The notes beneath the pieces were generated by a model that was given only the letters and a program-made list of their open reading frames with translations, did no database searches and was not told the DNA's origin. This document shows, piece by piece, positions 2,984 through 43,055 of a DNA stretch of 43,440 nucleotides. A program made the position numbers and the translations under genes. Position 1 is the stretch's first letter. Each line of letters begins with the position of its first letter. The stretch lies in the NCBI RefSeq assembly GCF_003334255.1, contig NZ_QOWU01000048.1. The stretch is one strand, 5' to 3'. Source of the stretch: Escherichia coli (GTDB lineage: Bacteria > Pseudomonadota > Gammaproteobacteria > Enterobacterales > Enterobacteriaceae).

Positions 2984-3599
2984 TGCATCGCCTGTAAATT
3001 TTTAACTTGTCCTATTTTTGTCATTACCACGTATATACACATGTATAACAATTCAGATATCGTTACCAGGATATGCCGCATCAGCGGCATGGAAGGCGGC
3101 ACTCTGTTGTTTCATATGATACAGGAGTAAAACCGCCGAAGCCCGGCGTAAGCCGGTACTGATTGATAGATTTCACCTTACCCATCCCCAGCCCTGCCAG
3201 ACCATACCCGCTTTCAGCCATGAGAGAGCTTCTGTGCGCGGTCGGAGTGGTCCCGACGAGGGTTTACCCGAAGTCGGGGCGTATCTCCGCGTTAGCGGGC
3301 CGTGAGGGCCGCTTACGAGCGTGTACTGAGAACTTCCAGCGAGAAGACTGACAGCGATGAAGATGTAGTTACAACATTCATAATTAAAAGCGACTCTGTT
3401 CCGGCCCTTTGGGCCGGGGCGGGGCCGCTTTTCAGTTATGAGGGAGGGGCTTTGTGGTTTCGGTTCTGCGCTGGACCGGGGTTTTTCTGGAGGTTGTTTT
3501 TGTGTGTTGTAACTAAAGTGGCTCCGGTCGGGGCCCGCCGCTTGCGGTGGGAGGTGCATATCTGTCTGTCCACAGGACAGGCAGTGAATAGGTTTTCTT

Positions 3600-4846: not shown

Positions 4847-4869
4847 ATAACTATACTCCCCGCATAGCT

Positions 4870-4956
4870 GAATTGTTGGCTATACGGTTTAAGTGGGCCC
4901 CGGTAATCTTTTCGTACTCGCCAAAGTTGAAGAAGATTATCGGGGTTTTTGCTTTT
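4870..4956 (+). ncRNA. copA: CopA antisense RNA (copy-number control), approximate bounds
   Basis: Lies on the strand opposite the repA leader, between copB and tap. Imperfect long hairpin (CCCCGGTAATCTT...AAGATTATCGGGG) followed by TTTTTGCTTTT at about 4898-4956, as expected for the CopA terminator stem-loop. 5' end not determined. Confidence 0.5.
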
Positions 4957-5494: not shown

Positions 5495-5577
5495 TTATGG
5501 AAACGCCGGGAGCGGGGAAAACTTGCTTTTTCCCGTTTCCGGGGTTGGACAACTGAGCAACGCGAAGGCGTCAGCTA
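5495..5577. repeat. Copy 1 of an ~80 bp hairpin-containing repeat (second copy at about 17475-17552)
   Basis: Shared blocks 'GGAAACGCCGGG' and 'CCGGGGTTGGACAAC.GAGCAA.GCGA.GGCGTCAG' flank a copy-specific hairpin. Lies between the DUF2726-like gene and repA2. Confidence 0.5.
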
Positions 5578-6161
5578 CGATGTTCCGGGGACTGCTGATC
5601 AGCCCCTGTTGTATTCAGCCATTCTCCGGTCATCTGCAGCAGTTTTCTGGCATCGTGGCTTCTGAGCAACGGAATACCAGCCTGCCTCAGAACCTCTTCC
5701 AGAAAAATATCCCGGCGTCTGCGTTCCGGTCGTAAATGTCTGGCATCATCCAGCTCTACTGCTGCAACAATACTGAACGAAAGCCGCTCAACGATAACCA
5801 CATCAACATGCCACTGAGACACCATCCTGAATAACTGCCACCACTGGCGTGATCGTGGCCGGATATTCCCGTTCAGCTGGACGATATCCGCGACCCGTAC
5901 CTGCGGACACAGATACCACCGCTTCATATCCACAATTCTGAACAGTCCTTTCATAAAACTGACTTCCCTTTCTGTCAGCAGCGTCTTCTGACGTTGCCAG
6001 TATTCACCGCCGGACAGTATTCGCTCTGCATCACCGGTCCGTATACCTGCCGCATGCAACTGCATCAGCAAAGGAGAATGCTGATTTACACTTCTGAGGA
6101 TAATCCGGATAAGTAACGCTGCAATAATCAGAACAATGAGAATAAAAATAATCAGCTTCAT
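5571..6161 (-). CDS. N-terminally membrane-anchored protein, probably DUF2726-type, 196 aa
   Basis: Hydrophobic N-terminus (MKLIIFILIVLIIAALLIRIIL) followed by a soluble domain. Occupies the position and has the size of the conserved IncF backbone gene next to the hha-like gene. Domain assignment is from memory, not motif-proven. Confidence 0.5.
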   Translation of the reverse strand: MKLIIFILIVLIIAALLIRIILRSVNQHSPLLMQLHAAGIRTGDAERILSGGEYWQRQKTLLTEREVSFMKGLFRIVDMKRWYLCPQVRVADIVQLNGNIRPRSRQWWQLFRMVSQWHVDVVIVERLSFSIVAAVELDDARHLRPERRRRDIFLEEVLRQAGIPLLRSHDARKLLQMTGEWLNTTGADQQSPEHRS

Positions 6162-6915: not shown

Positions 6916-6993
6916 GTTATTCTCCATATCAGATAAATAGCACCTGTATTTCATGCATCCTGAATATTGCAGCACACACTGAATAACACCTTA

Positions 6994-7015
6994 TTTTGTG
7001 AAATTAATCACAAAA
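6994..7015. promoter_or_regulatory. CRP-like palindrome TGTGA-N6-TCACA upstream of the nuclease gene
   Basis: Sequence TTTTGTGAAATTAATCACAAAA has perfect TGTGA/TCACA half-sites with a 6-nt spacer, about 90 bp upstream of the nuclease ATG. Confidence 0.35.
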
Positions 7016-7472
7016 TATAAAATCACGACTTAATACGGAAAAAACTCTGTGCTACTCAGAACTGTCCGGTCATACTTCCCGACCGGATATTAAAAAAAGC
7101 AAATCTCATGCATTATTCAGCCTTCTGAATCCCTGGAGTAATGAAGGCTGCTTTTTCGTTACACCCTTCCCCGGCAGCGCCGGTGGCAGTGTTCAGCCCT
7201 TTTTCGGGCAAACTGCTGCCAGTCTGTCCGGGGAGCAGACTGCGCAGCCCGTAGCCATGCCTCAGCGGCTCCCGGCCAGTCCCCCCTGACTTCCAGCCGG
7301 ACAGCCCGGCGTCCGACCTGCCGGTAGCGCCATACCCCGGAGTTTTGCGAATCACGCCCTGTTCCGTTCATTTTCCTTCCCCCTTTAATCCAGGCCGGTG
7401 AATGTGTTATAAATTTTTATAACCTTCTTCTGCCGGGTATGGAAGAAGGTTTCAGAGAAGCCTTATTTTTCC

Positions 7473-7504
7473 GCCTCCTTTAGTGTGAAGGAGGCTTTTT
7501 TATT
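7473..7504 (+). terminator. Intrinsic-terminator-like hairpin (GCCTCCTT-N8-AGGAGGC followed by TTTTTTATT) at the finO 3' end
   Basis: Perfect 7-8 bp GC-rich stem followed by a T-run on the plus strand. Overlaps the finO stop codon. May terminate plus-strand read-through or act bidirectionally. Confidence 0.4.
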
Positions 7505-8060
7505 GTTCATCAAGCACGGCCTGAAGTTCTGCCTTTATCCGGTTCTGGCGGCGGATTTTATCCAGACGCTCTGCCGCATACACTTCTTCCTCCTGAGAAA
7601 TATGCTCCGTCACATACCCTTCCGTGTCATACCGGCAGGCACCGGCTTTCATGGCACACAGATAGCTTTCTGAACGGGTGATGGCCTTCAGCGCCCTGCG
7701 CAGTTTTTTATGCGAGAGCGGGATATTCCGCTGCGCCACGTCTTCCAGTAACACGTCCCGGATACCGCAGGCCAGAAGTCGGGGTGTGTCACCGTCAAAT
7801 AATCCCGGCCACCAGGGTTTCAGGGTGTTCACGGCCTCATCCAGCGAGGGCAGGTTCAGATAAATGGACAGCGCCTGTCTGGCCTGCGCTTTTTTTGCTG
7901 TCAGCTCTGCTTCCCGGGCAGCCTTCTCCGCCAGTTTCTGCTTTTTCACCTTCCATTTTGGTGGCGTGGTGACATTGATGATGGTTTTCCGGCTCCGGGT
8001 CGGTGTTTCCCCTTCCGTTTTCCGTTTCAGTGTCAGTACCGGTCGTTTCTGCTCTGTCAT
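7500..8060 (-). CDS. finO: FinO fertility-inhibition RNA chaperone, 186 aa (intact)
   Basis: [25 protein letters not shown]... with a Lys/Arg-rich N-terminus matches FinO. Full length, with no IS interruption. Confidence 0.9.
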
Positions 8061-8162: not shown

Positions 8163-9023
8163 TTAAAGATGTTTTTTAAACCATTGCGTCTGTACTGCCG
8201 CCACACGTTCAAAAAACGCGCCTTCATAAATATCATAATGGCATGCGTCAGCTTCCTCGTATAATTCCTTAGTACCAGAAGCAACAGCATCATATAAGGC
8301 TTTTCCCTGTTCTGGTGGATTAACACTATCCTGGCCGGCAATAACAATCAAAACTGGGCACTGTACTTTGGCTGCGCTCTCTGCCGGTTTATATTGCAAC
8401 GTCTCCATAACCGTAAGGAAAGGTATTTTTATATCCATTTCAGGATACTGACCTTTTACCTTCTCGAAGAATACCTTTGATTCATTATCACTCAGTACCC
8501 GGGTAACCCCCACAAACATCTCTTTCCCGGTGTTTTTCTTCTTCTCTGCCATTTTATTCAGCGTGGACAGAAAAGACGCTCTCTCCGATTCATTCATCTC
8601 TCCGGTAACCAGAACATCACCGTCAGCAAAAGCCAGCTGGCTGACAATACATTTTACGCGTTGGTCCTGCGCAGCTGCACTGAAGACATGCCCCCCTCCC
8701 AGCGATGTTCCCCATAACCCAATACGCTGATTATCAATACATTCCTGCTTTTCTGCCCAATTGATAACTGAAATAATATCTTCGGTCTGCATTGCAGGAA
8801 CCAGACGCCCTCGTTCTCCATCACTCTCACCGAATCCTCGATAATCAAAAGTAATCGTTGCGAATCCTGCTTCTGTGAAGGCATTCGCAAAGCAAGGGAG
8901 CAGAACATTCCTGATACCGCAAAACCCATGGCATAAGATAATCAAAGGATGTTTTATATTTCCTTCAGGAACACGAAATGTCAGGGCAATACCTTCAGAG
9001 AGTTTGTGATCCGTAATTTTCAT
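8163..9023 (-). CDS. Alpha/beta-hydrolase-fold protein (esterase/dienelactone-hydrolase-like), 286 aa
   Basis: Nucleophile elbow 'GLWGTSLGGG' (G-x-S-x-G), 'HGFCG' oxyanion region, and C-terminal Asp/His candidates. Sits between traX and finO, where F-like plasmids carry variable cargo. Confidence 0.75.
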   Translation of the reverse strand: MKITDHKLSEGIALTFRVPEGNIKHPLIILCHGFCGIRNVLLPCFANAFTEAGFATITFDYRGFGESDGERGRLVPAMQTEDIISVINWAEKQECIDNQRIGLWGTSLGGGHVFSAAAQDQRVKCIVSQLAFADGDVLVTGEMNESERASFLSTLNKMAEKKKNTGKEMFVGVTRVLSDNESKVFFEKVKGQYPEMDIKIPFLTVMETLQYKPAESAAKVQCPVLIVIAGQDSVNPPEQGKALYDAVASGTKELYEEADACHYDIYEGAFFERVAAVQTQWFKKHL

Positions 9024-9847: not shown

Positions 9848-12800
9848 TCAGTCTCCGCCCAGGGTTTTCTCTTTCTGCAGGTCACGAACCATATCCCGCT
9901 CCATCTGCTGCAGACGCTCCTGCAGCAGATTTTCCCGGGCAACCTCCCGGACCGCTTCCCGCTCCCGTTGTGATTCACGCAGCACACTCTCCGGCAGTGC
10001 GGTTTCCCGTTCAGATATGGCAGACCGGTCACGCTCCTGTCCGGCAATATCCCTGACAGCCAGCTCTGTTTTGCCGTCCGGCAGGTCAGGTTTGTTCTCT
10101 GCCATTTTCCTGACAATTTCATCTGCGCGGCGTTCCGTTTCACGGCGGATGGCCTCTTCAGCCTGCCGCTGTGCCAGTACCTCTGCCGTGACCGGTTCGC
10201 CATTTCCGGCACCCGGCTGGACGCTGTTGTCCGGGATATCCCCCCACACGCGGCCACCGGTGATGGCACCGGGATTCCACGGGCGACCTTCACCGGCGAT
10301 TCTTACCACCACACCACTGTCAGGATTATCACGGGCAATCCGGACGCCATCCTGCATATTATCAGCCAGCAGGCTCTCTCCGTTACGGCTGCCCTGCAGG
10401 GCCACGAACTGCGCATCCCCGCTGCCTTTCACCCGTCCTTCACCACTGAATCCCCGCAGCCCGTTTCCGTCATCCGTGGTCAGTGGGTTCAGCCAGATAC
10501 CAGCTGACTTGCCGTTACGGTCAAACGCCGGCAGTGCCACATGCGGCTGCGGATATTTACGTCCCGGTGCAATAAACCGTGCAGGGCTGTCTCCCCCGGC
10601 CAGCCCTGCCTGACGGAGAACGGCACGGCCTGCCGCCACGTCCCGCAGTTCCCGTGCCGTACTGAACAGCCGCTGCGCATTCATGACCTCCCGGTCCGGT
10701 TTCGGCTCCAGCACATCGTGGGCAGTTCCTTTCTGTACGGCATTGTTAATGGCATCCGTCCAGCCCTGACGGTTATCGGTGTACACCTGCACATGCTGCT
10801 TCATACGCGACAGGGCCACGTAGGCTGACTCAAAGCCGGCCATCAGTTTCCGGTTACCTTCCGTGCCTTCAAGCGCGATGGCAAAGGTTTCACTCGCCCC
10901 CTGCGCACCGTGGGCGGTGATGGCATAAGCCAGGTCAATATGTTGCTCTGCCCGCTCCTGGCCGGGGCGAATCACCCGGGTCTGCTGTCCGTCTGACAGC
11001 GTGACACTGTCACCGGAAACCGCTGTCACCGTCCAGACGCTGTTGGCCACATAACCGCGCTCCCGGTCACTCTTCGTGAAGCGCATCCGGTCGCCGGTCC
11101 CCACCCGGATTTTGTCCGGGGTGTACAGTGTGACACCTTCAGCCACCGCCTCCCGGGGCGAAATCAGCCGCGTGTTACCTTCCGCATCCTCCAGGGTTAT
11201 CAGCCCGTCATCCTTGCTGATACCGGCAATCCGGTGATACACACTATCCACCAGGGCAAGGGCATCCGGGTTATTCTCCCAGGTGGAGAGACGACGCAGC
11301 TCCCCGTCACGTATATTCGCTGTGTTCAGGACAGGCACCATGACCTGCTCTTTCCCCAGCTCACCGGCCTTTTCCCGTGCATCATGAATCATGCTGTTCA
11401 GTACGCGCCGGTCCTCATTCAGGTGCGTGACAATCAGCGTCTGCTCCCGTGCTTCCGGTGTCCTGCCGGTATAGTCGCGGACAATGGCTTCATACAGTGT
11501 CATGGGGACATCCGGAAAAGTCTCACCTTTCAGCATCGCCTTCTGCTGCGCTTCTGCCAGTTTCGCTTCCTGGCTGTGACTGAACTCCGTCACGGAGTGC
11601 TCCGGTGCCCATGCGCCCTCCTGACGGGGAACCTGAGACGGTTTCACACTCTCAAGCCCGGACAGTGCCCTTTCCACATCCCGGTTAATCAGGCTGTATA
11701 CCGCCTCCCGCAGTTCCGGCGTCTGACGCACAATCTCCTTCATGATGACCACATCGGCAGCACTGCGCGTCTGCTGGAGACGGAAAGGCTGACCGGGCGC
11801 GATGGCCTGCAGCTGGTCCGTGTCACCACTGGCCACGGCACGACCGCCACCGGCCGCAATCAGGGCGTATGCCCGTGCCATGTCGGTATTGCCCACCATT
11901 GAGCTCTCATCGAGCAGGAACAGCGTGTTGCTGAAATCCGGCGTTTCTCCGCTGCGCTGCTGCAGCTGCGTGTCATGCAGAAAGGACGCCAGCGTCTGTG
12001 CATCCACGCCGGCGCTGCGCATCTCACCGACCGCACGGTGCGTGGGCCCCAGCCCCACAACTCGGGGACGCTCACTCGCCGGCAGCATGTTCACGGCTGA
12101 CATCACCGCCCGGAACTGTGTGGTCTTACCCACCCCGGCATACCCCTGCACCACCGTGAAACGGTCGGACGTTTCCAGTATCATGCGGGTGGCGGCACGC
12201 TGTCCTGATGTCAGTTTCTCCATGAGTTCGCCAGGTACTCTCTCCATCAGCGGCGTGACCGCCTCCTTACCTTCGAGAATATGGCGAAGAATACTTTTTT
12301 CTGCCTCATACGACGCACGGGAAACCAGCAGGCCTGTGCCATAGCCTTTTGCCACATCCACATACAGTAAGTCACCGCGTTTTATCTGCGCATTGATTTC
12401 CCCTCCCAGTTCAGTAAAACCGGTTCCTTCTGCAGCAAACGACTTCGCCTCTGTCAGCAGGTCCACCATGCTGAAGGCCAGGTTTTTACTTTCCAGCACA
12501 GGAAGGGCCAGATGAATGGCCTGCTGTGCCGGCGTGTGCAGCCCGGTTTTCTGCAGACTGATAGCGGTTTCCAGCGATGTCTCACCGGCCCGCGCCTTTA
12601 TCTGCTCAGAAACCACCGTAAAGGAGGGATGGCGGGCAAGTTTTTCCGCAGTACGGGTTTCATCCAGTGAGGAATACAGCCGGACATCACGACCGCTGCG
12701 GGCCAGACCGTTCAGGGTGGCGTTGTCCATTGCCATCTGTGTGACGGAGGCAAACACCGTCGCACTGTCACTGACGGAATGCCCGGGCGTTTCCACCCAG

Positions 12801-15118
12801 CCGTTCTCCAGCTTCAGTGCCGTGAACGGTGAATCAGCCACAGGCAGGGTGGCCGGTTCAGCCCGCCCCGGCACAACAACCGTCATCGCATCTTCACTGA
12901 CGGATGCCACCTGCAGGCGGTCACCGCCGGAGACGCGGAGTCTGGGAATTTTCCCTGTCACCCTCAGTCGCTCGCCGTCTGCCACCGGCATTTTTTCCGG
13001 CCGGAACAGCGACCAGCTGCTGTCCAGGGAGGAAATACGCACCACCTGCGTTTCGCCCTGCGCATCCCGCAGGGTCAGGCTGTGACTCTGCGCCGTCACC
13101 CGGTCGATAACATAGCGGTCATGACTGCGTGTCTCCGGGTTCCACTGCTCCATCACCATCCCCGGTCGGTACATATCCCGCAGATAACGGCTCCGGCTGT
13201 CCAGCCAGACCGGTGACAGGGCGGTCATGGTTACTTCCGGGTGTCCGAGCACGCCCTGTGTTTTCAGCTCACTGCGAATGGCCTGGGTCAGAATGGCCTG
13301 TTCCCGTACCCCGCTGACCTGTGCCACGCTCTCTTCTCCGGCTTTCACGCTGGCCGCAAAATCCCCGGCCAGCCGGGCATAGCGGACATTACGGTCCGGT
13401 TCACTGATGATGGTTGCCGGTCGCTGCTCTCCGCCCTGCCAGCGATATATGTTCACCCCGGCATCCTTCATGGCCATCAGCGCACTGCCTGTACCGGTTC
13501 GCTGCCCGCTGTCGGTTATCAGGACCTGTACGTTATGACGTGCGGCACCGTCCAGCAGGGTTAACGTCTCTTTCAGGGAGAGTTTTTCGCCCTGGTCAAC
13601 GATAACAGTACTGCCCGGCGTGAAGGCCATGCCTTCCAGCAGCTGACGACGTCCGGTTATCAGCTCACCGGACAACCGTTCATCCTGCTTCAGGTTCATC
13701 TGCGAGCGACGGTCAGCAGCGATAATCTGCACCTCCCGCCCCTGCTCCCGGGCCATCATGACCAGTTCAGCCACCCGCTCACGCTGCCCGGCTGCACCGC
13801 CCTGCCCGGACACAATGGCCAGCGACGGACGGTCCTGTGCCAGAACACTGACCGCATCGCTGTAACCAGCCGTCCGGGGGACACTTTTCTCCGGATGTAC
13901 GGTCACCCGGTTCTGTTTCATGATGTCACGACTGAGTGCCCGGACTGACAGCTCATCGAGCACATGAATCCCGGACGTGAACAGCCCCTTCTCACGATCG
14001 AGGGGGATAAGCTTCTCACGGCTGATGGCCTCATCGATACCGGCGCGTGCCCGTTCAATCACACCATTTTCCGGCGGCAGTATGCCGACCGTTCTGGCCA
14101 GCACGTCCGTGTACGTAAACTGCACTTTTCGTTCACTTAATCCGGCAATGGCCTGTGTCACCGCCTGCTGCACATCCGGCCCCTCCTGTGAAACAGCCCC
14201 GGGCGCCTGCGTGCGGGTCTCCGCACGCTGATCCGCCGCGTCACGATATGCCCGGATGTCGAACCCGGTTTCCTTCAGCGTCTGCATCCATTCAGCCATT
14301 CTGACTTCAGGATCGACGTGCTGTTTGGATTTTCGCGTATCCAGTGCCGCCACATCCCGGGATTTCAGCGAGGCATCTTCCCCGACGGCCTCCCGGATTG
14401 CCTGTGAGCGTCCGGAAAAGGCCTCCACCGGTACGCCCGGCATCTCCCACATACCGTGCTTACCCACCACTTCGGTTTCATAGCCCAGCGCCTCAACCTG
14501 CTCTTTCAGTTTTTCCCGGTAGAGCCTGCCAAAGGCAATCTGATTAGCGTACACATTCTCAATGAACCCCGTTTTCCCCACTTTGTCACTGCTCAGTGTC
14601 TTCCATTCGCCGTTATGCTGCGTGACATTAGCCACCACCGCATGCGTGTGTAACTGTGGTTCCTGATCGCGACTGGTGTCGTGGTTAAACAGTGCCATCA
14701 CCAGATTACCGGTCAGCACCGTTTCTGACTGTCCGTCCGTCATCACCCGTGTGGAGGCCAGCGCCTCCACCTGACGAACAGCAAAGTCCACGGCCTGGTT
14801 ATGTGCATCAATCAGGCGCTTATCGCCACCTAACATGGCCATCATGGAGACACTTTTGGGGGCGGAGAAGGTCAGGTCGTAGCCGGGACGATGCCTGTTA
14901 CTGCCATCCTGCATGCGGCTTAGATCCGCTCCATCCGGCAGCCTTCCCTCCAGAAGACGGGTAAAAACATCCTTATCGACACTGCCCTGCAGTCCCAGCT
15001 GTTCAGCCCCCCTGCCGGCCCAGCGTTCTCCCATGCTGCCCAGCACATAGTAATTATCCTTGTCGGTATAATAGTTACCGGCACTTCCGGCCGATCTGAC
15101 CTGCGCAATACTCATCAT
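9848..15118 (-). CDS. traI: TraI relaxase/helicase (DNA helicase I), 1756 aa
   Basis: Full-length colinear match to F TraI ([35 protein letters not shown]... through ...KEKTLGGD), including the N-terminal relaxase region and the 'GYAGVGKTT' Walker A of the helicase. Confidence 0.95.
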   Translation of the reverse strand: MMSIAQVRSAGSAGNYYTDKDNYYVLGSMGERWAGRGAEQLGLQGSVDKDVFTRLLEGRLPDGADLSRMQDGSNRHRPGYDLTFSAPKSVSMMAMLGGDKRLIDAHNQAVDFAVRQVEALASTRVMTDGQSETVLTGNLVMALFNHDTSRDQEPQLHTHAVVANVTQHNGEWKTLSSDKVGKTGFIENVYANQIAFGRLYREKLKEQVEALGYETEVVGKHGMWEMPGVPVEAFSGRSQAIREAVGEDASLKSRDVAALDTRKSKQHVDPEVRMAEWMQTLKETGFDIRAYRDAADQRAETRTQAPGAVSQEGPDVQQAVTQAIAGLSERKVQFTYTDVLARTVGILPPENGVIERARAGIDEAISREKLIPLDREKGLFTSGIHVLDELSVRALSRDIMKQNRVTVHPEKSVPRTAGYSDAVSVLAQDRPSLAIVSGQGGAAGQRERVAELVMMAREQGREVQIIAADRRSQMNLKQDERLSGELITGRRQLLEGMAFTPGSTVIVDQGEKLSLKETLTLLDGAARHNVQVLITDSGQRTGTGSALMAMKDAGVNIYRWQGGEQRPATIISEPDRNVRYARLAGDFAASVKAGEESVAQVSGVREQAILTQAIRSELKTQGVLGHPEVTMTALSPVWLDSRSRYLRDMYRPGMVMEQWNPETRSHDRYVIDRVTAQSHSLTLRDAQGETQVVRISSLDSSWSLFRPEKMPVADGERLRVTGKIPRLRVSGGDRLQVASVSEDAMTVVVPGRAEPATLPVADSPFTALKLENGWVETPGHSVSDSATVFASVTQMAMDNATLNGLARSGRDVRLYSSLDETRTAEKLARHPSFTVVSEQIKARAGETSLETAISLQKTGLHTPAQQAIHLALPVLESKNLAFSMVDLLTEAKSFAAEGTGFTELGGEINAQIKRGDLLYVDVAKGYGTGLLVSRASYEAEKSILRHILEGKEAVTPLMERVPGELMEKLTSGQRAATRMILETSDRFTVVQGYAGVGKTTQFRAVMSAVNMLPASERPRVVGLGPTHRAVGEMRSAGVDAQTLASFLHDTQLQQRSGETPDFSNTLFLLDESSMVGNTDMARAYALIAAGGGRAVASGDTDQLQAIAPGQPFRLQQTRSAADVVIMKEIVRQTPELREAVYSLINRDVERALSGLESVKPSQVPRQEGAWAPEHSVTEFSHSQEAKLAEAQQKAMLKGETFPDVPMTLYEAIVRDYTGRTPEAREQTLIVTHLNEDRRVLNSMIHDAREKAGELGKEQVMVPVLNTANIRDGELRRLSTWENNPDALALVDSVYHRIAGISKDDGLITLEDAEGNTRLISPREAVAEGVTLYTPDKIRVGTGDRMRFTKSDRERGYVANSVWTVTAVSGDSVTLSDGQQTRVIRPGQERAEQHIDLAYAITAHGAQGASETFAIALEGTEGNRKLMAGFESAYVALSRMKQHVQVYTDNRQGWTDAINNAVQKGTAHDVLEPKPDREVMNAQRLFSTARELRDVAAGRAVLRQAGLAGGDSPARFIAPGRKYPQPHVALPAFDRNGKSAGIWLNPLTTDDGNGLRGFSGEGRVKGSGDAQFVALQGSRNGESLLADNMQDGVRIARDNPDSGVVVRIAGEGRPWNPGAITGGRVWGDIPDNSVQPGAGNGEPVTAEVLAQRQAEEAIRRETERRADEIVRKMAENKPDLPDGKTELAVRDIAGQERDRSAISERETALPESVLRESQREREAVREVARENLLQERLQQMERDMVRDLQKEKTLGGD

Positions 15119-17334
15119 CAGAAATCATCTCCCGGCTCAACATCCTCCCCGCGCTCCCGGTGCACATTAATGTTCACCTCTTCACGACGCTGCATCTGCT
15201 GCTGGATGTCCGGATGATTTTCCTGTTGCCATGCCTCATAAGCGGCCATATCCACCACTTCACCGGATTCACTGATCCCGGGTGGCAGTTGCTGTTCCAT
15301 CTCTTCTTCCGGTTTCATTTTCAGCTCCTGCTCGATCCCCCCTGCCGGAACATTCACACCTGAATCTGACTTCTTATCGTTGATGGCAGGAGACACCGGC
15401 TGTTGCGGCTGTTGCGGCTGTTGCGGCTGTTGCGGCTGTTGCGGCTGTTGCGGCTGTTGCGGCTGTTGCGGCTGTTCAGCCTGAGTCACGTCTTCTCCGG
15501 AAACAACCTCCGGGACATCCGGTTCGAAGAGGCTGGCCATCTGACGACCTTCTGCTTCCCTTGCGGCAAGTACGGCACTCAGACGGTTCTCCATTTCCGG
15601 GTTGATGTCACGCGGAATAAACTCCGGAGCGACCTTCGGTCGTGTCTGATATTTCAGAGAGAGTTTTACTGCCGGATACGGTCCGGGCAGGGTGACATAA
15701 CAGGTCAGATCCGGCAGAGACTGAATGTCGGAATAACTGACCAGCGTCTGGCGCTCCATATCCTTACCGGTCGATACCCCGTCACGTACCGGATCAGCAC
15801 CGTAGGAATACTGCTCGCTGGCTTTCAGGTGCTCTTTCTCACCAATCTCACCGGCAGCGAACTCTGCAATCTTATGGCTGGGAGAACGGAAAAAGGCACG
15901 GGTGTTCATGACGTCAAACAGCGTGGCAGCCGCTTTCTCACCGTAGATATCTTCCAGCTGGGCATAGGACTGGATACCAAACACATAACAGCCACCGAAC
16001 TTACGGGCTTCCGGCAGGATCTCCACCAGGTCCGGCAGTTTGTGTAACGTGGGTAGCTCATCACAAAAAAACCACACACGACGGTTACGGTTTTCTCCCA
16101 TTGCCAGCAGACCACGAATGGCAATGGACAGCCACATGGAGATCACCGGCTTCAGGGAGGCATGGGTGTCGGCATTCGACGAGATAAACAGCCAGCCGTT
16201 TTTCTGATCTTCCCGGACACCACGCATCCAGTCACGGATGGTAAAAGACTCACCGTTATGCTCAATCCCCTGCAGGTAACGGATGGCTTTCACGTAGTTG
16301 GTCAGCACAGCACGGATGGAAATCGCCGTTTTCTCAATTTTCTCTTCCACCAGGTTGGCCGCCGGTGAATTACGCAGGAAGGTACGCAGTTTTTCGATTT
16401 TGATGGAAAGCAGTGTGTCCACCAGTTTGCTGTAGCTGCGGTTGGGGTCATTACGCATCAGGTACGCCGCTTCCGCAAAAATGGTACGTCCTGAACCCTG
16501 CCAGAACGGGTCCTCTTTTGTGCCCATCGGGATCAGCGTGTTCGCGGTATTATCAAAATCCGGCTGTGTCAGGCACTCCTTCCACAAATCCCAGGCGGCA
16601 CAGCGGGCATCCAGCGGATTCAGGATTTTATCGATGGAGGGATCATAGTAACTTTTAACAAATTCCCCTGAACGGTCATAAATCACCACCATATCTCCAC
16701 GCTGACGGGCGTAGTTGGCCAGACGACGGATAACTTCCGACTTACCGGCCCCGACCGTGCCGTGCAGACAGAAGTTCTGGATTTCGGAATCCCGGATAAT
16801 CGGCAGGTCGCCAATCCGGATATCGGAGTCCTTGCCGTCTTTTTTCAGCATCCGGGCAACGTCTTTCGGATTGTCTGTCAGCTGACGACCACCTGTGACT
16901 TCATTTTCGCTCTGTTGTTTACCCTGACGCCCCAGAATCCAGGAGACAACAAAGAAGGTGATCAGGCAAATAACCAGTGCCACAACTGTGGCCAGAACGA
17001 ATGCGGACCATAGCTGCTCTCCGCACCAGATCATATATTTATCATGCAGTACCTGAGCAGCGTTCATCCGGAAGGTTTTGCCGTAATACTGGATCTCATA
17101 GACCGGCTGGGACTTGATTAAATCCCGCATGCCTTCCAGCGTGGTACACCACCAGTAAATACAGCCGTTCACAAACGTCTGCCAGCTTATTTTTACCCAT
17201 AAAACCAGACCAACGAGTATCCAGAAAAAAATAAACAGGCAGTAAAGCATGATATTGGCGATCTGGCTGAACATGCGGATACGCATGGACGCAATCTGAC
17301 CGCCCTGGGTCATATCCTTTGCGTTAAAACTCAT
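15118..17334 (-). CDS. traD: TraD type IV coupling protein, 738 aa, with expanded C-terminal QQP repeat
   Basis: [24 protein letters not shown]... matches F TraD. Walker A 'GTVGAGKSE'. C-terminal (QQP)n tract is longer than I remember for F (717 aa). Confidence 0.95.
15401..15472. repeat. Eight perfect tandem copies of a 9-nt unit (TGTTGCGGC) encoding the TraD QQP repeats
   Basis: Directly visible as (ctgttgcgg)x8 in the sequence. In-frame within traD on the minus strand. Confidence 0.9.
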
Positions 17335-18841: not shown

Positions 18842-21663
18842 AATGGCCCCTTCAATCGTTCTTTCTTATCATCCACCATCTGTTTTAACGCATCTTCAGA
18901 CGGTGTTGGCATTAATTTCTGTCGTTTATTTTCTTCATTATATCTGTTGTTTTGTTGAATTTCTTCCTGTTTGTGATTATTTTTTAACTCTGAATATTGT
19001 CTGTCTACAATATTTTCTTCGCCATGAATACTATTCTGAGTATCTCCGATATTCCCTTTATATTCTGTGACCATATTATCAACCTGATGTTTTACATCAT
19101 TACGGATATTACTGTCCTGCGTTCTTTGATCAATAATGGCCTGATGCCCCTGATGGTCAGCAATAATATCCTGGCTGCCACCACCCGAAGGTACGCTCTC
19201 CATTCCTTTACCAATATCCCCACGGGATTCACGCCAGGCATTATCAACACCAGGCTGCACCTGTTCCTGAACAAAAGACCATGCCATCGCCCGACGGCGT
19301 TCTGCAATCTCCGGTGAACTGGTGTTTGTCAGAATAGCTTCGGCATCCTGCGGTGCGTGTTTCATCACATACTGTGCAAACTGTTGCGACAAATCTTCGC
19401 TCATCTGCCCACTCATGCTTTCAGTACGGGATGCCATTTCAGCATATTCATGGCTGCGGGTCATATTCGTCGTGTACTGGTCGTAACTCTGTTTCGCTGA
19501 GTTCAGGGCTGCAGACAACTGGTCCACGCGGGAATCGGCATTATTGTCAGTATGGCTGCCGGATTCACTGACTTTGCGACTGGTAAAGTAATCGCTGGCC
19601 TCTTTAAAGTCCTTACTGGCTTTAGCATCGATATCATGGCGAGCATCATGGGTAGCCCTGCTGCCACTACTTGCTGAATGTGAGTCATCATCCGTTGCAT
19701 CCAGGCTCCCCTTAAATCCACCTCTGATGCCTACCCCACCACCAACACCAAGAATTTTAGGTTTAACCCCCCATTCAGCATGAGCATCAGCATACATTCC
19801 ACCAGATAGCCTGGTACTTGTTGATGCCAGTTCCTGAGTCGCCTGCTCATTACTGATATTATGCGCCTTCGCATAGCTTTCCACTGCACTGCGCATACGG
19901 CTGGCCATCATGGAGTCCTGAGCACTCATCGTGCTGTCAGCACCACCGGTGACAGAATCACTGCTCCCCCGGTTAGAACCAAACTGACTGAGCGTGTTCC
20001 AGGCACTGGCAATACTGCTGCTGAACCCATGCAGGGCACTTTCTGCTCTGTTCGATGCTTCCCGGGCCATTTCCTGTTGTGCCGCCGCAATCTGACGCGT
20101 TGCATTGATACCGACCGGTAAACGGGACATCGCCCCGCTCGCATCCATCACCATATTACCGTCACGGGTCTGTGTGGCGGTTGCGCCACTGCCGGTCTGG
20201 TACATCATCTGACCAAACGACGTGGTGCTGTTGGTGCTCCAGCTGAAGCCGTTAACGTTCTCCGTCTGCATGTTGCCGTAGGAGTAATTACCGTCAACCA
20301 CACTGCCTGCTGCACTGGCGGTCGGGCTGATAGCAGAGGAAGCGAAATGGCTGTACACACTGGAAAATCCTGCCCCGAGCCCCCTGACCATCATCCAGGA
20401 TAATGGCGGGATCATCATGGAAAGATACCCGGCAGTGGAAGCCAGATCGGAGTATTTCAGCTGTATCTGTGAAATTTCCGAGAGCACCACCGGTGCACCA
20501 TTCTGCTTTGCATAAAATGTCATGGCGCTGTTCAGAATGGCGTACAACATTGGCCATGACTGCAACCACATCAGGGCAAACACATAGCCTTTCAGGACGG
20601 ACAGCGTCAGTTTGTTGAAGACAGCCGCCAGTACCAGGAGCGGGAAAATACCGATGGCGATCCCCGTCAGGATGGTCTGCGTCATGGGCAGTGTCCGCAT
20701 CGCCACATGACCGATGGAGACATGTGCCAGACGTTGCTTCTCCATCGATGATGTGGTGGCCAGATTCACCAGGCTGGCCGAATCACCATTACGTGCGGCA
20801 TAACTGGTGATCCCCTCCTTCAGCGCATTGATGGTGACATTCTGGCGGATGATCTGGCTGGCTGATTTACTTGAGCCATAGAAGTAACTGTAACTGTCGC
20901 CAATCAGCGTACTGAACAACAGGTTCGGATCAGGGCGTCCACCAAATAGCTGCTGGGCATAATAATGCCATGTTTTTCCGCCACTCTGTGTGTCCAGATT
21001 CAGCTTGTCTTTCAGCGAAACCGACGCGTCCTTACAGGTCACGAAATTATTATTGCTGTCATAAACGCCCCGCAGCGGACTGGGGCGGGAAAAAATCAGC
21101 GTGTAAGGATCAGCGGAGGCCATCAGTTCCTCCAGCGTGTATTTGTGGTTCAGGTAAATATCCCCCATCACGCAGTTCTGCACATAATCCTGGAAAAGAT
21201 TGGCGATTTCCGGATTACGGGACAAAAAGTCGGTGCTTTTTGATACCAGTTCTGCGCCAAACAGCATCCCCGTTTTGCTGTAGGTGACACTGTCCGGTTG
21301 CGTGAAGATCATCTCGTAACTGGCCACCATTGCATGCCCGATACGGGTCGTCAGTGAAAGTGGCATCGCCAGTCCGACCGGCACATTATCCACCCGGTGA
21401 ACTTTGACCAGGTCACTGTTATCAATAATCTGCACCGATGTGCGGACATTAACCAGCAGGCTGATAAGCACAAACACGGCCACCCAGCCCAGCAAATCCA
21501 TCACGTTGTGCCGCTGTACCCACATTACGGCCACCGCGAGAACAGACAATGTGAGCGCAATTTTTTCAATGGAATCCCACGTCCGGGTCCCCATAAAAGC
21601 GGCAATGGCATTCAGGTTATTCCGCAACCACTCACCACCGGCAATCACATAAACTTCATTCAC
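18838..21663 (-). CDS. traG: TraG mating-pair stabilisation/pilus assembly/entry exclusion protein, 941 aa
   Basis: Size, N-terminal polytopic region and large periplasmic C-terminal domain match F TraG (938 aa). Syntenic with traH and traS. Confidence 0.9.
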   Translation of the reverse strand: MNEVYVIAGGEWLRNNLNAIAAFMGTRTWDSIEKIALTLSVLAVAVMWVQRHNVMDLLGWVAVFVLISLLVNVRTSVQIIDNSDLVKVHRVDNVPVGLAMPLSLTTRIGHAMVASYEMIFTQPDSVTYSKTGMLFGAELVSKSTDFLSRNPEIANLFQDYVQNCVMGDIYLNHKYTLEELMASADPYTLIFSRPSPLRGVYDSNNNFVTCKDASVSLKDKLNLDTQSGGKTWHYYAQQLFGGRPDPNLLFSTLIGDSYSYFYGSSKSASQIIRQNVTINALKEGITSYAARNGDSASLVNLATTSSMEKQRLAHVSIGHVAMRTLPMTQTILTGIAIGIFPLLVLAAVFNKLTLSVLKGYVFALMWLQSWPMLYAILNSAMTFYAKQNGAPVVLSEISQIQLKYSDLASTAGYLSMMIPPLSWMMVRGLGAGFSSVYSHFASSAISPTASAAGSVVDGNYSYGNMQTENVNGFSWSTNSTTSFGQMMYQTGSGATATQTRDGNMVMDASGAMSRLPVGINATRQIAAAQQEMAREASNRAESALHGFSSSIASAWNTLSQFGSNRGSSDSVTGGADSTMSAQDSMMASRMRSAVESYAKAHNISNEQATQELASTSTRLSGGMYADAHAEWGVKPKILGVGGGVGIRGGFKGSLDATDDDSHSASSGSRATHDARHDIDAKASKDFKEASDYFTSRKVSESGSHTDNNADSRVDQLSAALNSAKQSYDQYTTNMTRSHEYAEMASRTESMSGQMSEDLSQQFAQYVMKHAPQDAEAILTNTSSPEIAERRRAMAWSFVQEQVQPGVDNAWRESRGDIGKGMESVPSGGGSQDIIADHQGHQAIIDQRTQDSNIRNDVKHQVDNMVTEYKGNIGDTQNSIHGEENIVDRQYSELKNNHKQEEIQQNNRYNEENKRQKLMPTPSEDALKQMVDDKKERLKGPL

Positions 21664-39632: not shown

Positions 39633-40319
39633 TTACTTAACGCTATAAAATTCACGAATTATATTTAATAGCGAATCTATTTCCCCTTTATAGATACATG
39701 ACACTCTGAATAAATCAAAGTGTTCAAAAAATTCTTTTATTTTCCGTTTAACTGGTTTAATTCGATCCTCAGATGCTCTGTCTGTAATACCCAATTCTCT
39801 GGCAATTGTTGCATGACCAACACCCAGCATATAAAAAGAGAAAACAAGCAATGTCCCGGGGGAAAGATCATTCCATATCGTTAATTTGTCAGAAGTATTT
39901 GTATTACTTCCACTCTGATTTAACGCAAAAAATGGATAATCAGGAAACGGATTAATTTGCCATAAAACAACAGATTCGTCATTATAAAAAGAAACATTCT
40001 CCATCCTTATCTGATAGATTTCGCCATGAAAATTAAAACGACGACAAAATGCAGAGCCATGTCCAAGAGCCTGGCATTCCAGTTCAAGTGATGAAAGAAA
40101 AATTTCAACCTGCAGACGTATATAACTCTCTCCGGATAAGGGTTTATCTTCTCTGGAAAAGAGTTCAATAAAAGCCCCATTGGCATAAAGGATTTTCCGG
40201 TTTTTGTTACGGACACAAACCGGAACGGGAGAATTTCTGTAGATATTCTGAACGTTAAGGATGTATTTATTTACAGATTGACTGTTAAGTGGCCTTTCTC
40301 TACGATCCAGCGCACACAT
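39633..40319 (-). CDS. traJ: TraJ transcriptional activator of the tra operon, about 228 aa
   Basis: Start trimmed to the ATG at 40319 ([14 protein letters not shown]...), which has a GGAGG RBS at 5-nt spacing. C-terminal helix-turn-helix-like segment '[20 protein letters not shown]'. ORF-track start at 40379 runs into the finP/leader region. Confidence 0.8.
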
Positions 40320-40395
40320 AGGAACCTCCGTTAAGGATTCTATGGACAGTCGATGCAGGGAGGTCTGAACTCCCTGCATCGGCGATTTTCAGTTT
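40320..40395 (+). ncRNA. finP: FinP antisense RNA (approximate), complementary to the traJ leader
   Basis: Plus-strand perfect hairpin CGATGCAGGGAG-gtctgaa-CTCCCTGCATCG at about 40350-40381, followed by GCGATTTTC. Overlies the traJ RBS region on the opposite strand. Ends not mapped. Confidence 0.45.
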
Positions 40396-40509
40396 CAATT
40401 TTTAACGTGGCATTAACCACGTAATTAATATACTAATTATCTGACGTATTGTCATCTTTTTGAATCATAAAAATTCTTATATTTGAACCAACTCAAACTT
40501 CATTTTCAT

Positions 40510-40893
40510 TTATTCATCATCATTTTTTGGAAAAAACCGGTCCATCTCAACAGACACTTTCTCTCTGATATCGTCAACCATACTGGCATATTCAAACTTC
40601 GGGTTTCCGGAGACATGAGGACTGAGAGACTCAATACCTAAAATCTTTGCCACCGTTGACTGTGTTTTTACAACACATTCAAGAAGAAGTTTATTAAACT
40701 CTGTCTGGTTAAACGCAGACTCTTTACGCTCCATCTGTACATCATATACGCGAAGCCCCAATTCAAGAAGCATTGAAGCAGTTCCTGAAAGGCTTATATC
40801 TTTATCTCTTGCTCCCTCCTGACGACGCTTTTCAACAATCATGTTAATTTTTTCATGAACCTCATTACTGATATACAGATTTACTCTGGCCAT
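40510..40893 (-). CDS. traM: TraM relaxosome accessory/oriT-binding protein, 127 aa
   Basis: MARVNLYISNEVHEKINMIVEKRRQEGARDKDISLSGTASMLLELGLRV... closely matches F TraM. Confidence 0.9.
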   Translation of the reverse strand: MARVNLYISNEVHEKINMIVEKRRQEGARDKDISLSGTASMLLELGLRVYDVQMERKESAFNQTEFNKLLLECVVKTQSTVAKILGIESLSPHVSGNPKFEYASMVDDIREKVSVEMDRFFPKNDDE

Positions 40894-41307
40894 AAGACAG
40901 TACCTTTTATATTCTGAAATAAGTGTTTTATTTCATTTACTCATAGTTTGGTCTGAAAAAAGAAGAGCACCCCTAGCAGCGCCCCTAGGGTCATACTATA
41001 AAAAAACGCACGGCGCTGCTAGGGGCGGCCCTAATATATCCAAATGTTTTTCATAAAATTTGTCAGTACTGACCCTAACAAGGGTCGCCATAGGGTCGCC
41101 ATAGGGTCGTCAACGACCCTATTTAATAATGTAAAATAAATTAAAATACATTATTTAAAACATAAGCTAATGATTCAAAAAGCAAATCATCAAAAACTTG
41201 TTTTTGCGTGGGGTGTGGTGCTTTTGGTGGTGAGAACCACCAACCTGTTGAGCCTTTTTGTGGAGTGGGTTAAATTATTTACGGATAAAGTCACCAGAGG
41301 TGGAAAA
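40894..41307 (+). other. oriT: oriT (origin of transfer) with F-type nic sequence; nick predicted on the plus strand at about 41216/41217
   Basis: TTTGCGTGGGGTGT|GGTGCTTTTGGTGGTGAGAACCACCAACCTGTTGAGCC at about 41203-41250 matches the F nic region. Upstream lie inverted repeats (CCCCTAGCAGCGCC ... GGCGCTGCTAGGGG) and an AGGGTCGCCAT direct-repeat/palindrome cluster (41070-41121) between nic and traM. Confidence 0.8.
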
Positions 41308-42061: not shown

Positions 42062-42115
42062 ATGATAATATAAGTAAAGCCCCGAAAATTTTTTCGGGGC
42101 TTTACTTATATTATC
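42062..42115. terminator. Long perfect palindrome (about 25-bp arms), probable bidirectional terminator between convergent gene X and orf273
   Basis: GATAATATAAGTAAAGCCCCGAAAA tt TTTTCGGGGCTTTACTTATATTATC. GC-rich core stem flanked by A/T runs on both strands. Confidence 0.6.
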
Positions 42116-42935
42116 ATGACTTCCACTTTCTGAACTGTTCGGCAATCACCCATAACGCCTTGTTGATTCTTATATCACCATCAATACCTGTAATGGCTCT
42201 TGTCCTGGTATTTTTCCCGGAGGCACTTCGCCCCGATAATCCACCTTTTATCATATTCTCCTGAACCCGCTGCCAGGTTGTCCAGAGATCGTTCTGTTTG
42301 TCTTCCCGACGACGGGGAGTAATTATCTGTTCAGGTGTCACTGGCGTTTTATTTTCATCTTCATACCTGACCATCAGTGCAGCTCTGCCAAATAAATGTT
42401 GCTCGTCACTGTTAAGATGAATTTCTTTCATCGCCTCCATATTATCAGTGACCTTATCAAAGACACCGAGCACTTCATACGCTCCCTCGATAACCTGCCC
42501 GACAATATCACCTTTATGTGGAACGCGGATTTCGCCAAAATTATTTCCGCACACCAGGCCATTTGTGCAGACAAAACGAAAAATTCCGGGGATCATCTGA
42601 TAACTGGATGAACCATCATGTGAATTAAGCAGGATAATTTCAGGAACTTCCTGTCCGTTAATATGCCCTTCCCTGCGAAGACGTAACATATGTTTACTGT
42701 ATTCGCGACGTCCCAAATCACGAACCCGACTCTGACAGGCAAAGAATGGCTGGAAACCTTCATCACGTAACTTATTGATGATATTGATTGTTGGAATATA
42801 CGTATAACGTTCACTCCGGGACTCATGTTTATCACCGGAAAATACCGAAGGCACGAACTGCATTAATTCATCATCCGTTAAAGGACGTTCACGGCGGATG
42901 GAATTATACCGACCAAAACGGGAAGCTAATCGCAT
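42114..42935 (-). CDS. DUF932-family leading-region protein (F orf273-like), 273 aa
   Basis: Start trimmed to MRLASRFGRYNSIRRERPLTDDELMQF..., giving 273 aa. Position is the first leading-region gene after gene X, as in F. Family assignment is from memory. Confidence 0.65.
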   Translation of the reverse strand: MRLASRFGRYNSIRRERPLTDDELMQFVPSVFSGDKHESRSERYTYIPTINIINKLRDEGFQPFFACQSRVRDLGRREYSKHMLRLRREGHINGQEVPEIILLNSHDGSSSYQMIPGIFRFVCTNGLVCGNNFGEIRVPHKGDIVGQVIEGAYEVLGVFDKVTDNMEAMKEIHLNSDEQHLFGRAALMVRYEDENKTPVTPEQIITPRRREDKQNDLWTTWQRVQENMIKGGLSGRSASGKNTRTRAITGIDGDIRINKALWVIAEQFRKWKS

Positions 42936-43055
42936 AACAGCTACTCCTTTATGAAAGAATAAATTTAATAAAAAATTTTTCCGCTTAATATCATCCCCCC
43001 CCCGATCTCCATTAACAAGATTGCAACAATCAGGAGAGATATTCATCACATCCGG

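Follow-up and report, generated by a model that had tools for sequence, protein, structure and literature searches.

A perfect 9-bp tandem repeat of variable copy number in the C-terminal domain of the F-like coupling protein TraD

The window (the whole stretch of 43,440 nucleotides analysed here) is recognised from its sequence as the transfer region of an F-like conjugative plasmid (MOBF/MPF_F, IncFII-RepA). It carries an IncFII RepA, the CopA RNA, FinO and the FinP/traJ 5'UTR, and over 24 kb it is 99.8-100.0% identical to several E. coli plasmids typed as MOBF/MPF_F.

The genes around the repeat lie on the minus strand in the order traS-traT-traD-traI, which is also supported by the annotation of relatives that are 100% identical (Table 1). 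The reading frame between traT and traI matches the Pfam families TraD_N (PF12615; residues 32-128, E = 7.9e-35), TrwB_AAD_bind (PF10412; residues 172-561, E = 5.3e-117) and TraG-D_C. The TrwB structure 1e9r can be aligned to its nucleotide-binding domain with an E-value of 3.2e-47, and a Walker A motif, GTVGAGKS, is found at residue 192. The predicted product is identified by these matches, and by the position of the gene, as the F-type coupling protein TraD, the name given to it in the preliminary description. An exact look-up of the 738-residue protein in a collection of 15 billion proteins, with or without the stop codon, returned no entry. This absence carries no information, because the public record CP063712.1 encodes a TraD that is identical to that of the window.

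Table 1. Position of the QQP tract and of associated features in the window
Feature	Position	Strand	Basis or remark
traD, F-type type IV coupling protein, 738 aa	15118-17334	-	ORF, Pfam, TrwB structures
TraD nucleotide-binding domain, residues 161-573	15616-16854	-	match to solved TrwB structure
TraD C-terminal domain, residues 574-738, contains the QQP tract	15121-15615	-	Q/E/P-rich
QQP coding tract, TraD residues 621-646	15397-15474	-	(CAGCCGCAA)x8 + CAGCCG = QP(QQP)8
Last 15 TraD residues, C15 discrimination motif, including the ~8-residue TraM-binding tail	15121-15165	-	
traI relaxase/helicase	9848-15118	-	ATG overlaps the traD stop by one base (TGATG)
traM, relaxosome partner of the TraD tail	40510-40893	-	

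The junction between traD and traI differs from that of F. A vapBC toxin-antitoxin pair is situated between the two genes in F (6958-7674 of the F locus, L012) and in many F-like records, unlike in the window, where the stop codon of traD overlaps the start of traI at 15116-15120.

The repeat consists of eight perfect TGTTGCGGC units on the plus strand, arranged head to tail at 15401-15472, exactly as had been described. Tandem Repeats Finder (TRF) reports a single array at 15397-15476, with a period of 9, 8.9 copies, 100% matches, no indels and a score of 160; the periodicity thus overruns the eight units by a few bases at each end. A probe of two units has seven overlapping matches in the window, none of them outside the array, and had no match in 100 dinucleotide-preserving shuffles. 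There is no other strong tandem repeat in the 43-kb window. In the protein the tract reads ...VTQAE-QP(QQP)x8-VSPAINDKK.... The units are perfect, their length is a multiple of three and the reading frame of 738 residues is intact, as is expected of a coding tandem repeat. Read as a single strand, the repeat gives a poorer fold than its shuffled counterparts (z = +2.17), and Rfam yields no family at its position; the idea that the repeat is a structured element in DNA or RNA, or acts as a terminator, was rejected on these two results. A plus-strand ORF of 214 codons at 15403-16047, which starts within the repeat, is the antisense of traD and was rejected as a gene, being a mechanical by-product.

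The ATPase domain match stops at residue 573; the spacer formed by the tract begins about 47 residues further on and stops 92 residues short of the C-terminus. Residues 574-738 have neither Pfam nor PDB coverage, and the TraD C-terminal domain has been described as unstructured (PMC3245843; PMC10939261). From this coverage and the literature, the tract lies outside any folded domain, after the ATPase domain and before the TraM-binding tail. The last residues of TraD dock onto TraM at the relaxosome, and the C-terminus affects transfer specificity (PMC3245843; PMC10939261). The role that the preliminary description ascribed to the C-terminus is established in published work, for the tail and for the domain as a whole. 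The two parts contribute very unequally: the C15 motif stimulates cognate transfer 10^4-10^5-fold, and the C-terminal domain without its last 15 residues accounts for only about 10- to 30-fold (10^1-10^1.5) (PMC10939261). The partner of the tail is also present in the window. Residues 58-127 of its TraM are identical at 64 of 70 positions to the tetramerisation domain of F TraM that was solved together with the TraD tail (2g7o/3d8a).

Global alignment of the window TraD with that of the F plasmid (717 residues, NC_002483) gives six substitutions, none of them beyond residue 471, and a single gap of 21 residues, which falls wholly within the tract. Past residue 471 only the tract differs, and the C-terminal tails are identical. 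The tract of F is QPQQP, that is, one unit, compared with eight in the window. The single gap explains the difference between 738 and 717 residues exactly, so that both the greater length of the tract relative to F and its part in the length of the protein are as the preliminary description had stated.

The repeated Gln-Gln-Pro was reportedly remarked upon in the 1990 paper on the R100 traD sequence as well. The variability of the tract is already known from Lang et al. 2011 (Mol Microbiol 82:1071, PMC3245843), who reported that the "QQP motif", located in the unstructured extension of F-like TraD, varies in length, with five residues in F (QPQQP) and 23 in R1. The window tract occupies the same place in the C-terminal extension of the same gene as the motif of F, R1 and NR1/R100 and has the same amino-acid unit; it differs in count only, having 26 residues (8 units) as against 5 in F and 23 in R1. 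To the 2011 description the present analysis adds the range of 1 to 22 units, the turnover among nearly identical plasmids, the purity of the arrays and their restriction to one clade.

The number of units varies even among the closest relatives of the window. Positions 9000-33000 were compared with five related plasmids over 23,921 non-repeat bases. NZ_CP091699.1 has one mismatch and 15 units, CP063712.1 two mismatches and 8 units, CP057145.1 three mismatches and 3 units, NZ_OQ747075.1 five mismatches and 9 units, and NZ_CP032810.1 40 mismatches and 7 units. Besides the array there is no indel in any of the five over this region, and outside the tract their TraD proteins are all identical to that of the window. 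Two plasmids from cattle farms, CP057029.1 and CP057928.1, have 13 and 12 units, respectively, although their 39,903 flanking bases are the same throughout, free of mismatches and indels. Among the best 60 matches, with flanks at least 99.6% identical, counts of 4, 5, 8, 11, 12, 13, 14 and 15 occur. The suggestion that repeat number may vary between isolates is borne out by these counts, which are far from identical in close relatives.

The total lengths of the two cattle-farm plasmids differ by 9 bp. This was discarded as proof that they differ by one unit only, because their structures diverge beyond an IS66 element. Past about position 40,000 one of them has an autotransporter gene and the other hok/psiA.

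In seven sets of epidemiologically linked plasmids of equal or nearly equal length, the count is the same within each set, showing that the rate of change is not so high that every isolate differs. The 8-unit allele with identical flanks is present in three independent records (NC_025141.1, CP063712.1 and NZ_MK092064.1).

The range of unit counts was established with a query of 783 nt spanning the tract. It matched 4,011 plasmids in PLSDB; of 5,426 complete E. coli genomes, 2,805 had matches, in 3,215 records. Counts were inferred from the span of the match in evenly spaced samples of both lists, which yielded 115 full-length matches from records that are not phylogenetically independent. The span differs from the query by a multiple of 9 in 110 of these, and the inferred counts extend from 0 to 21 units, with 21 distinct values and a median of 6. 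Exactly 8 units were inferred in 3.6% of the sampled records. The commonest state is the one-unit F-type allele (24 of 110), and all 24 copies of it share one span despite flank identities of 96-99.9%.

The inference from spans was validated by reading directly the arrays of 19 public records and of the window. Arrays of CAGCCGCAA have 1 (F and two F-like records), 3, 4, 7, 8, 9, 11, 12, 13 or 15 units, and arrays of CAGCCACAA have 8, 9, 11 or 22, giving a direct range of 1 to 22 units in these 20 records. The inference is exact for the CAGCCGCAA lineage and one unit too low for the CAGCCACAA lineage, where the flank is 9 nt shorter.

Five of the 115 spans are not multiples of 9. Three of them, in pHK09, pMG336 and pAVS0969-C, are explained outside the array; the others are H36 and H178. 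The spans of pHK09 and pMG336 were considered as changes of the array and rejected, since they are due to a 103-nt duplication and to an indel in the flank, respectively. In pHK09 (NC_019071.1) the 103 nt are duplicated in tandem directly 3' of an 11-unit tract; on the traD coding strand this is some 130-330 nt downstream from the anchor. The duplication shifts the traD frame, and traD is missing from the gene table of the record; either this traD is a pseudogene, or the record contains an old error of assembly. A larger, in-frame duplication in pAVS0969-C (NZ_CP124478.1) results in two tracts, the first of 11 units, followed by ...QPEVASGEGVNQAQ, and the second reading QPQQPQQP. The region is therefore also subject to duplications that take in flanking sequence.

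All 20 arrays that were read are internally pure, including that of 22 units. The two unit alleles are strictly lineage-specific, CAGCCGCAA occurring with the tail VSPAIND... and CAGCCACAA with VSSVIND..., and no array mixing CCG and CCA units was found among the 20 (loci L001-L024). This homogeneity is consistent with recent slippage.

Among 150 representatives of the TraD family (clusters at 50% identity), the QQP array is limited to F/R1-like proteins. A relative of 86% identity has only QPQQPQP at the position of the tract, one of 66% identity has a stretch rich in P, A and V, and more distant relatives have other sequence of low complexity. The other type IV coupling proteins (30-86% identity) thus resemble TraD of F and R1 in having a low-complexity, acidic or proline-rich extension after the ATPase domain, but none of these representatives has a QQP array. 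Judged from these alignments, the array is a clade-specific expansion of a short seed in a linker that is generally of low complexity, which speaks more for a flexible, tolerated tether than for a conserved functional motif.

The reading preferred here, with a probability of roughly 85%, is that the tract is an in-frame variable-number 9-bp repeat generated by slippage in a tolerant linker of an F-like TraD. The array would expand and contract through slippage during replication or through unequal (recA-dependent) exchange of sister copies, and its rate of change appears to be far above that of point substitution. The one-unit allele of F would offer little substrate for slippage and would remain fixed; the 24 invariant one-unit alleles are what is expected if two or three units are the minimum on which slippage can act. 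The spacer probably acts as a flexible tether and is neither a folded nor a contact element, which would explain why lengths of 5 to 68 residues are tolerated and would make any effect of length on transfer modest at most. The eight units of the window would then be one state of a known polymorphism.

In-frame coding repeats of variable number are known in bacterial proteins and arise by slipped-strand mispairing; the textbook examples are mostly surface proteins under immune selection. The traD tract has in common with them perfect units with a length that is a multiple of three, polymorphism among close relatives and a location in a non-globular segment, but it is part of the cytoplasmic tether of a conjugation ATPase. 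Phase-variable contingency loci are simple-sequence repeats by which genes are turned on and off. With the traD array they have in common the presumed mechanism, slippage, and a rate that considerably exceeds that of point mutation. However, the traD unit is 9 nt long and never shifts the frame, and TraD is intact at 1 to 22 units. The array was therefore rejected as a classical phase-variable contingency locus: nothing is switched on or off, in agreement with the 110 of 115 spans that differ by multiples of 9.

The same slippage might be put to use by the plasmid. The length of the tract would then be a tuning knob under diversifying or fluctuating selection, governing either how the TraD tail reaches or moves towards TraM-bound relaxosomes or the susceptibility to pilus-specific RNA phages that depend on TraD (R17 group), with slippage as a reversible contingency mechanism that preserves the frame. 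Selection would maintain the hypermutability of such an evolvable dial, by which transfer efficiency, promiscuity towards non-cognate relaxosomes or RNA-phage susceptibility would be varied. The turnover of copy number, which is very fast relative to point mutation, and the wide range of circulating alleles speak for this. It also echoes Lang et al. 2011, where phage resistance was suggested as a force behind the diversification of F-like coupling proteins, and where TraD variation was offered as a possible cause of the differing R17 infection seen with R1 and F (PMC3245843). However, pure arrays and a broad, featureless distribution of counts are what neutral slippage predicts. The single-unit allele of F, the commonest in the sample, is fully proficient, the array is missing from more distant relatives, and the remainder of the C-terminal domain influences transfer modestly (PMC10939261). 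No functional data on tract length, nor any test of its effect, were found in the literature searched, where the motif itself appears only in Lang et al. 2011. On balance, adaptive tuning is considered unlikely.

Copy number could also differ because traD alleles are exchanged by recombination between co-resident F-like plasmids, with no slippage de novo. F-like plasmids are mosaic and often co-resident, a single genome having up to seven places that match the query, and the association of the two unit alleles with distinct tail variants would fit exchange of this kind. Nevertheless, an imported allele would have to match its new background everywhere but in count. Plasmids that differ in count have only 0-5 point differences over 24-40 kb, none of them near the array; the five relatives of the window have five different counts in TraD proteins that are otherwise identical, and mixed CCG/CCA arrays were not encountered among the 20 arrays read. 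Since the backgrounds that carry different counts are identical, exchange is a very improbable source of the variation.

That the unit number was mis-called in the window or in public records is highly improbable: assemblers are known to have difficulty with tandem repeats, some public records could contain errors in arrays longer than about 150 nt, the longest (> 200 nt) exceed the length of a short read, and pHK09 has its odd duplication beside the tract, but the window array is 80 nt long, well inside a single read, and is found unchanged with its flanks in the three independent records, all counts keep the frame, and the seven sets of linked plasmids agree among themselves.

The polymorphism has some practical consequences. 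The window allele itself matters little, the polymorphism having been described in 2011 and the identical protein being present in GenBank. Point mutations across the whole 24-kb tra region accumulate more slowly than the array changes. The array is therefore a cheap marker of high resolution, which could tell apart F-like plasmids that are otherwise identical when outbreaks are tracked. At this spot assemblies, and protein clusters defined by length, can also be misleading.

Several other features of the window were observed. An ORF at 8163-9023 (-), between finO and traX, matches the NCBIfam model NF047920 with 508.9 bits (cut-off 400), a UilS-family quorum-quenching N-acyl-homoserine lactonase; public records annotate it merely as an alpha/beta hydrolase. 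No NCBIfam match at E <= 1e-5 was obtained for the ORFs at 51-1361, 3173-3559, 5571-6161 and 42114-43049 (all -); in a related plasmid, a DUF2726 protein is annotated at the equivalent of 5571-6161. A ChpB/MazF-like toxin is seen at 1646-2110, with a score just under the curated cut-off. In addition to the expected Rfam families, CopA (4864-4954) and the FinP/traJ 5'UTR (40313-40422), three matches on the plus strand are above the gathering score: AS-traI (12193-12269), AS-traG (20859-20944) and AS-pc02 (7079-7262). Upstream of traM, the intergenic region has a perfect 11-nt repeat, AGGGTCGCCAT x2.6, at 41081-41109 with GC-rich inverted repeats nearby, and this probably belongs to the oriT/TraM-binding region.
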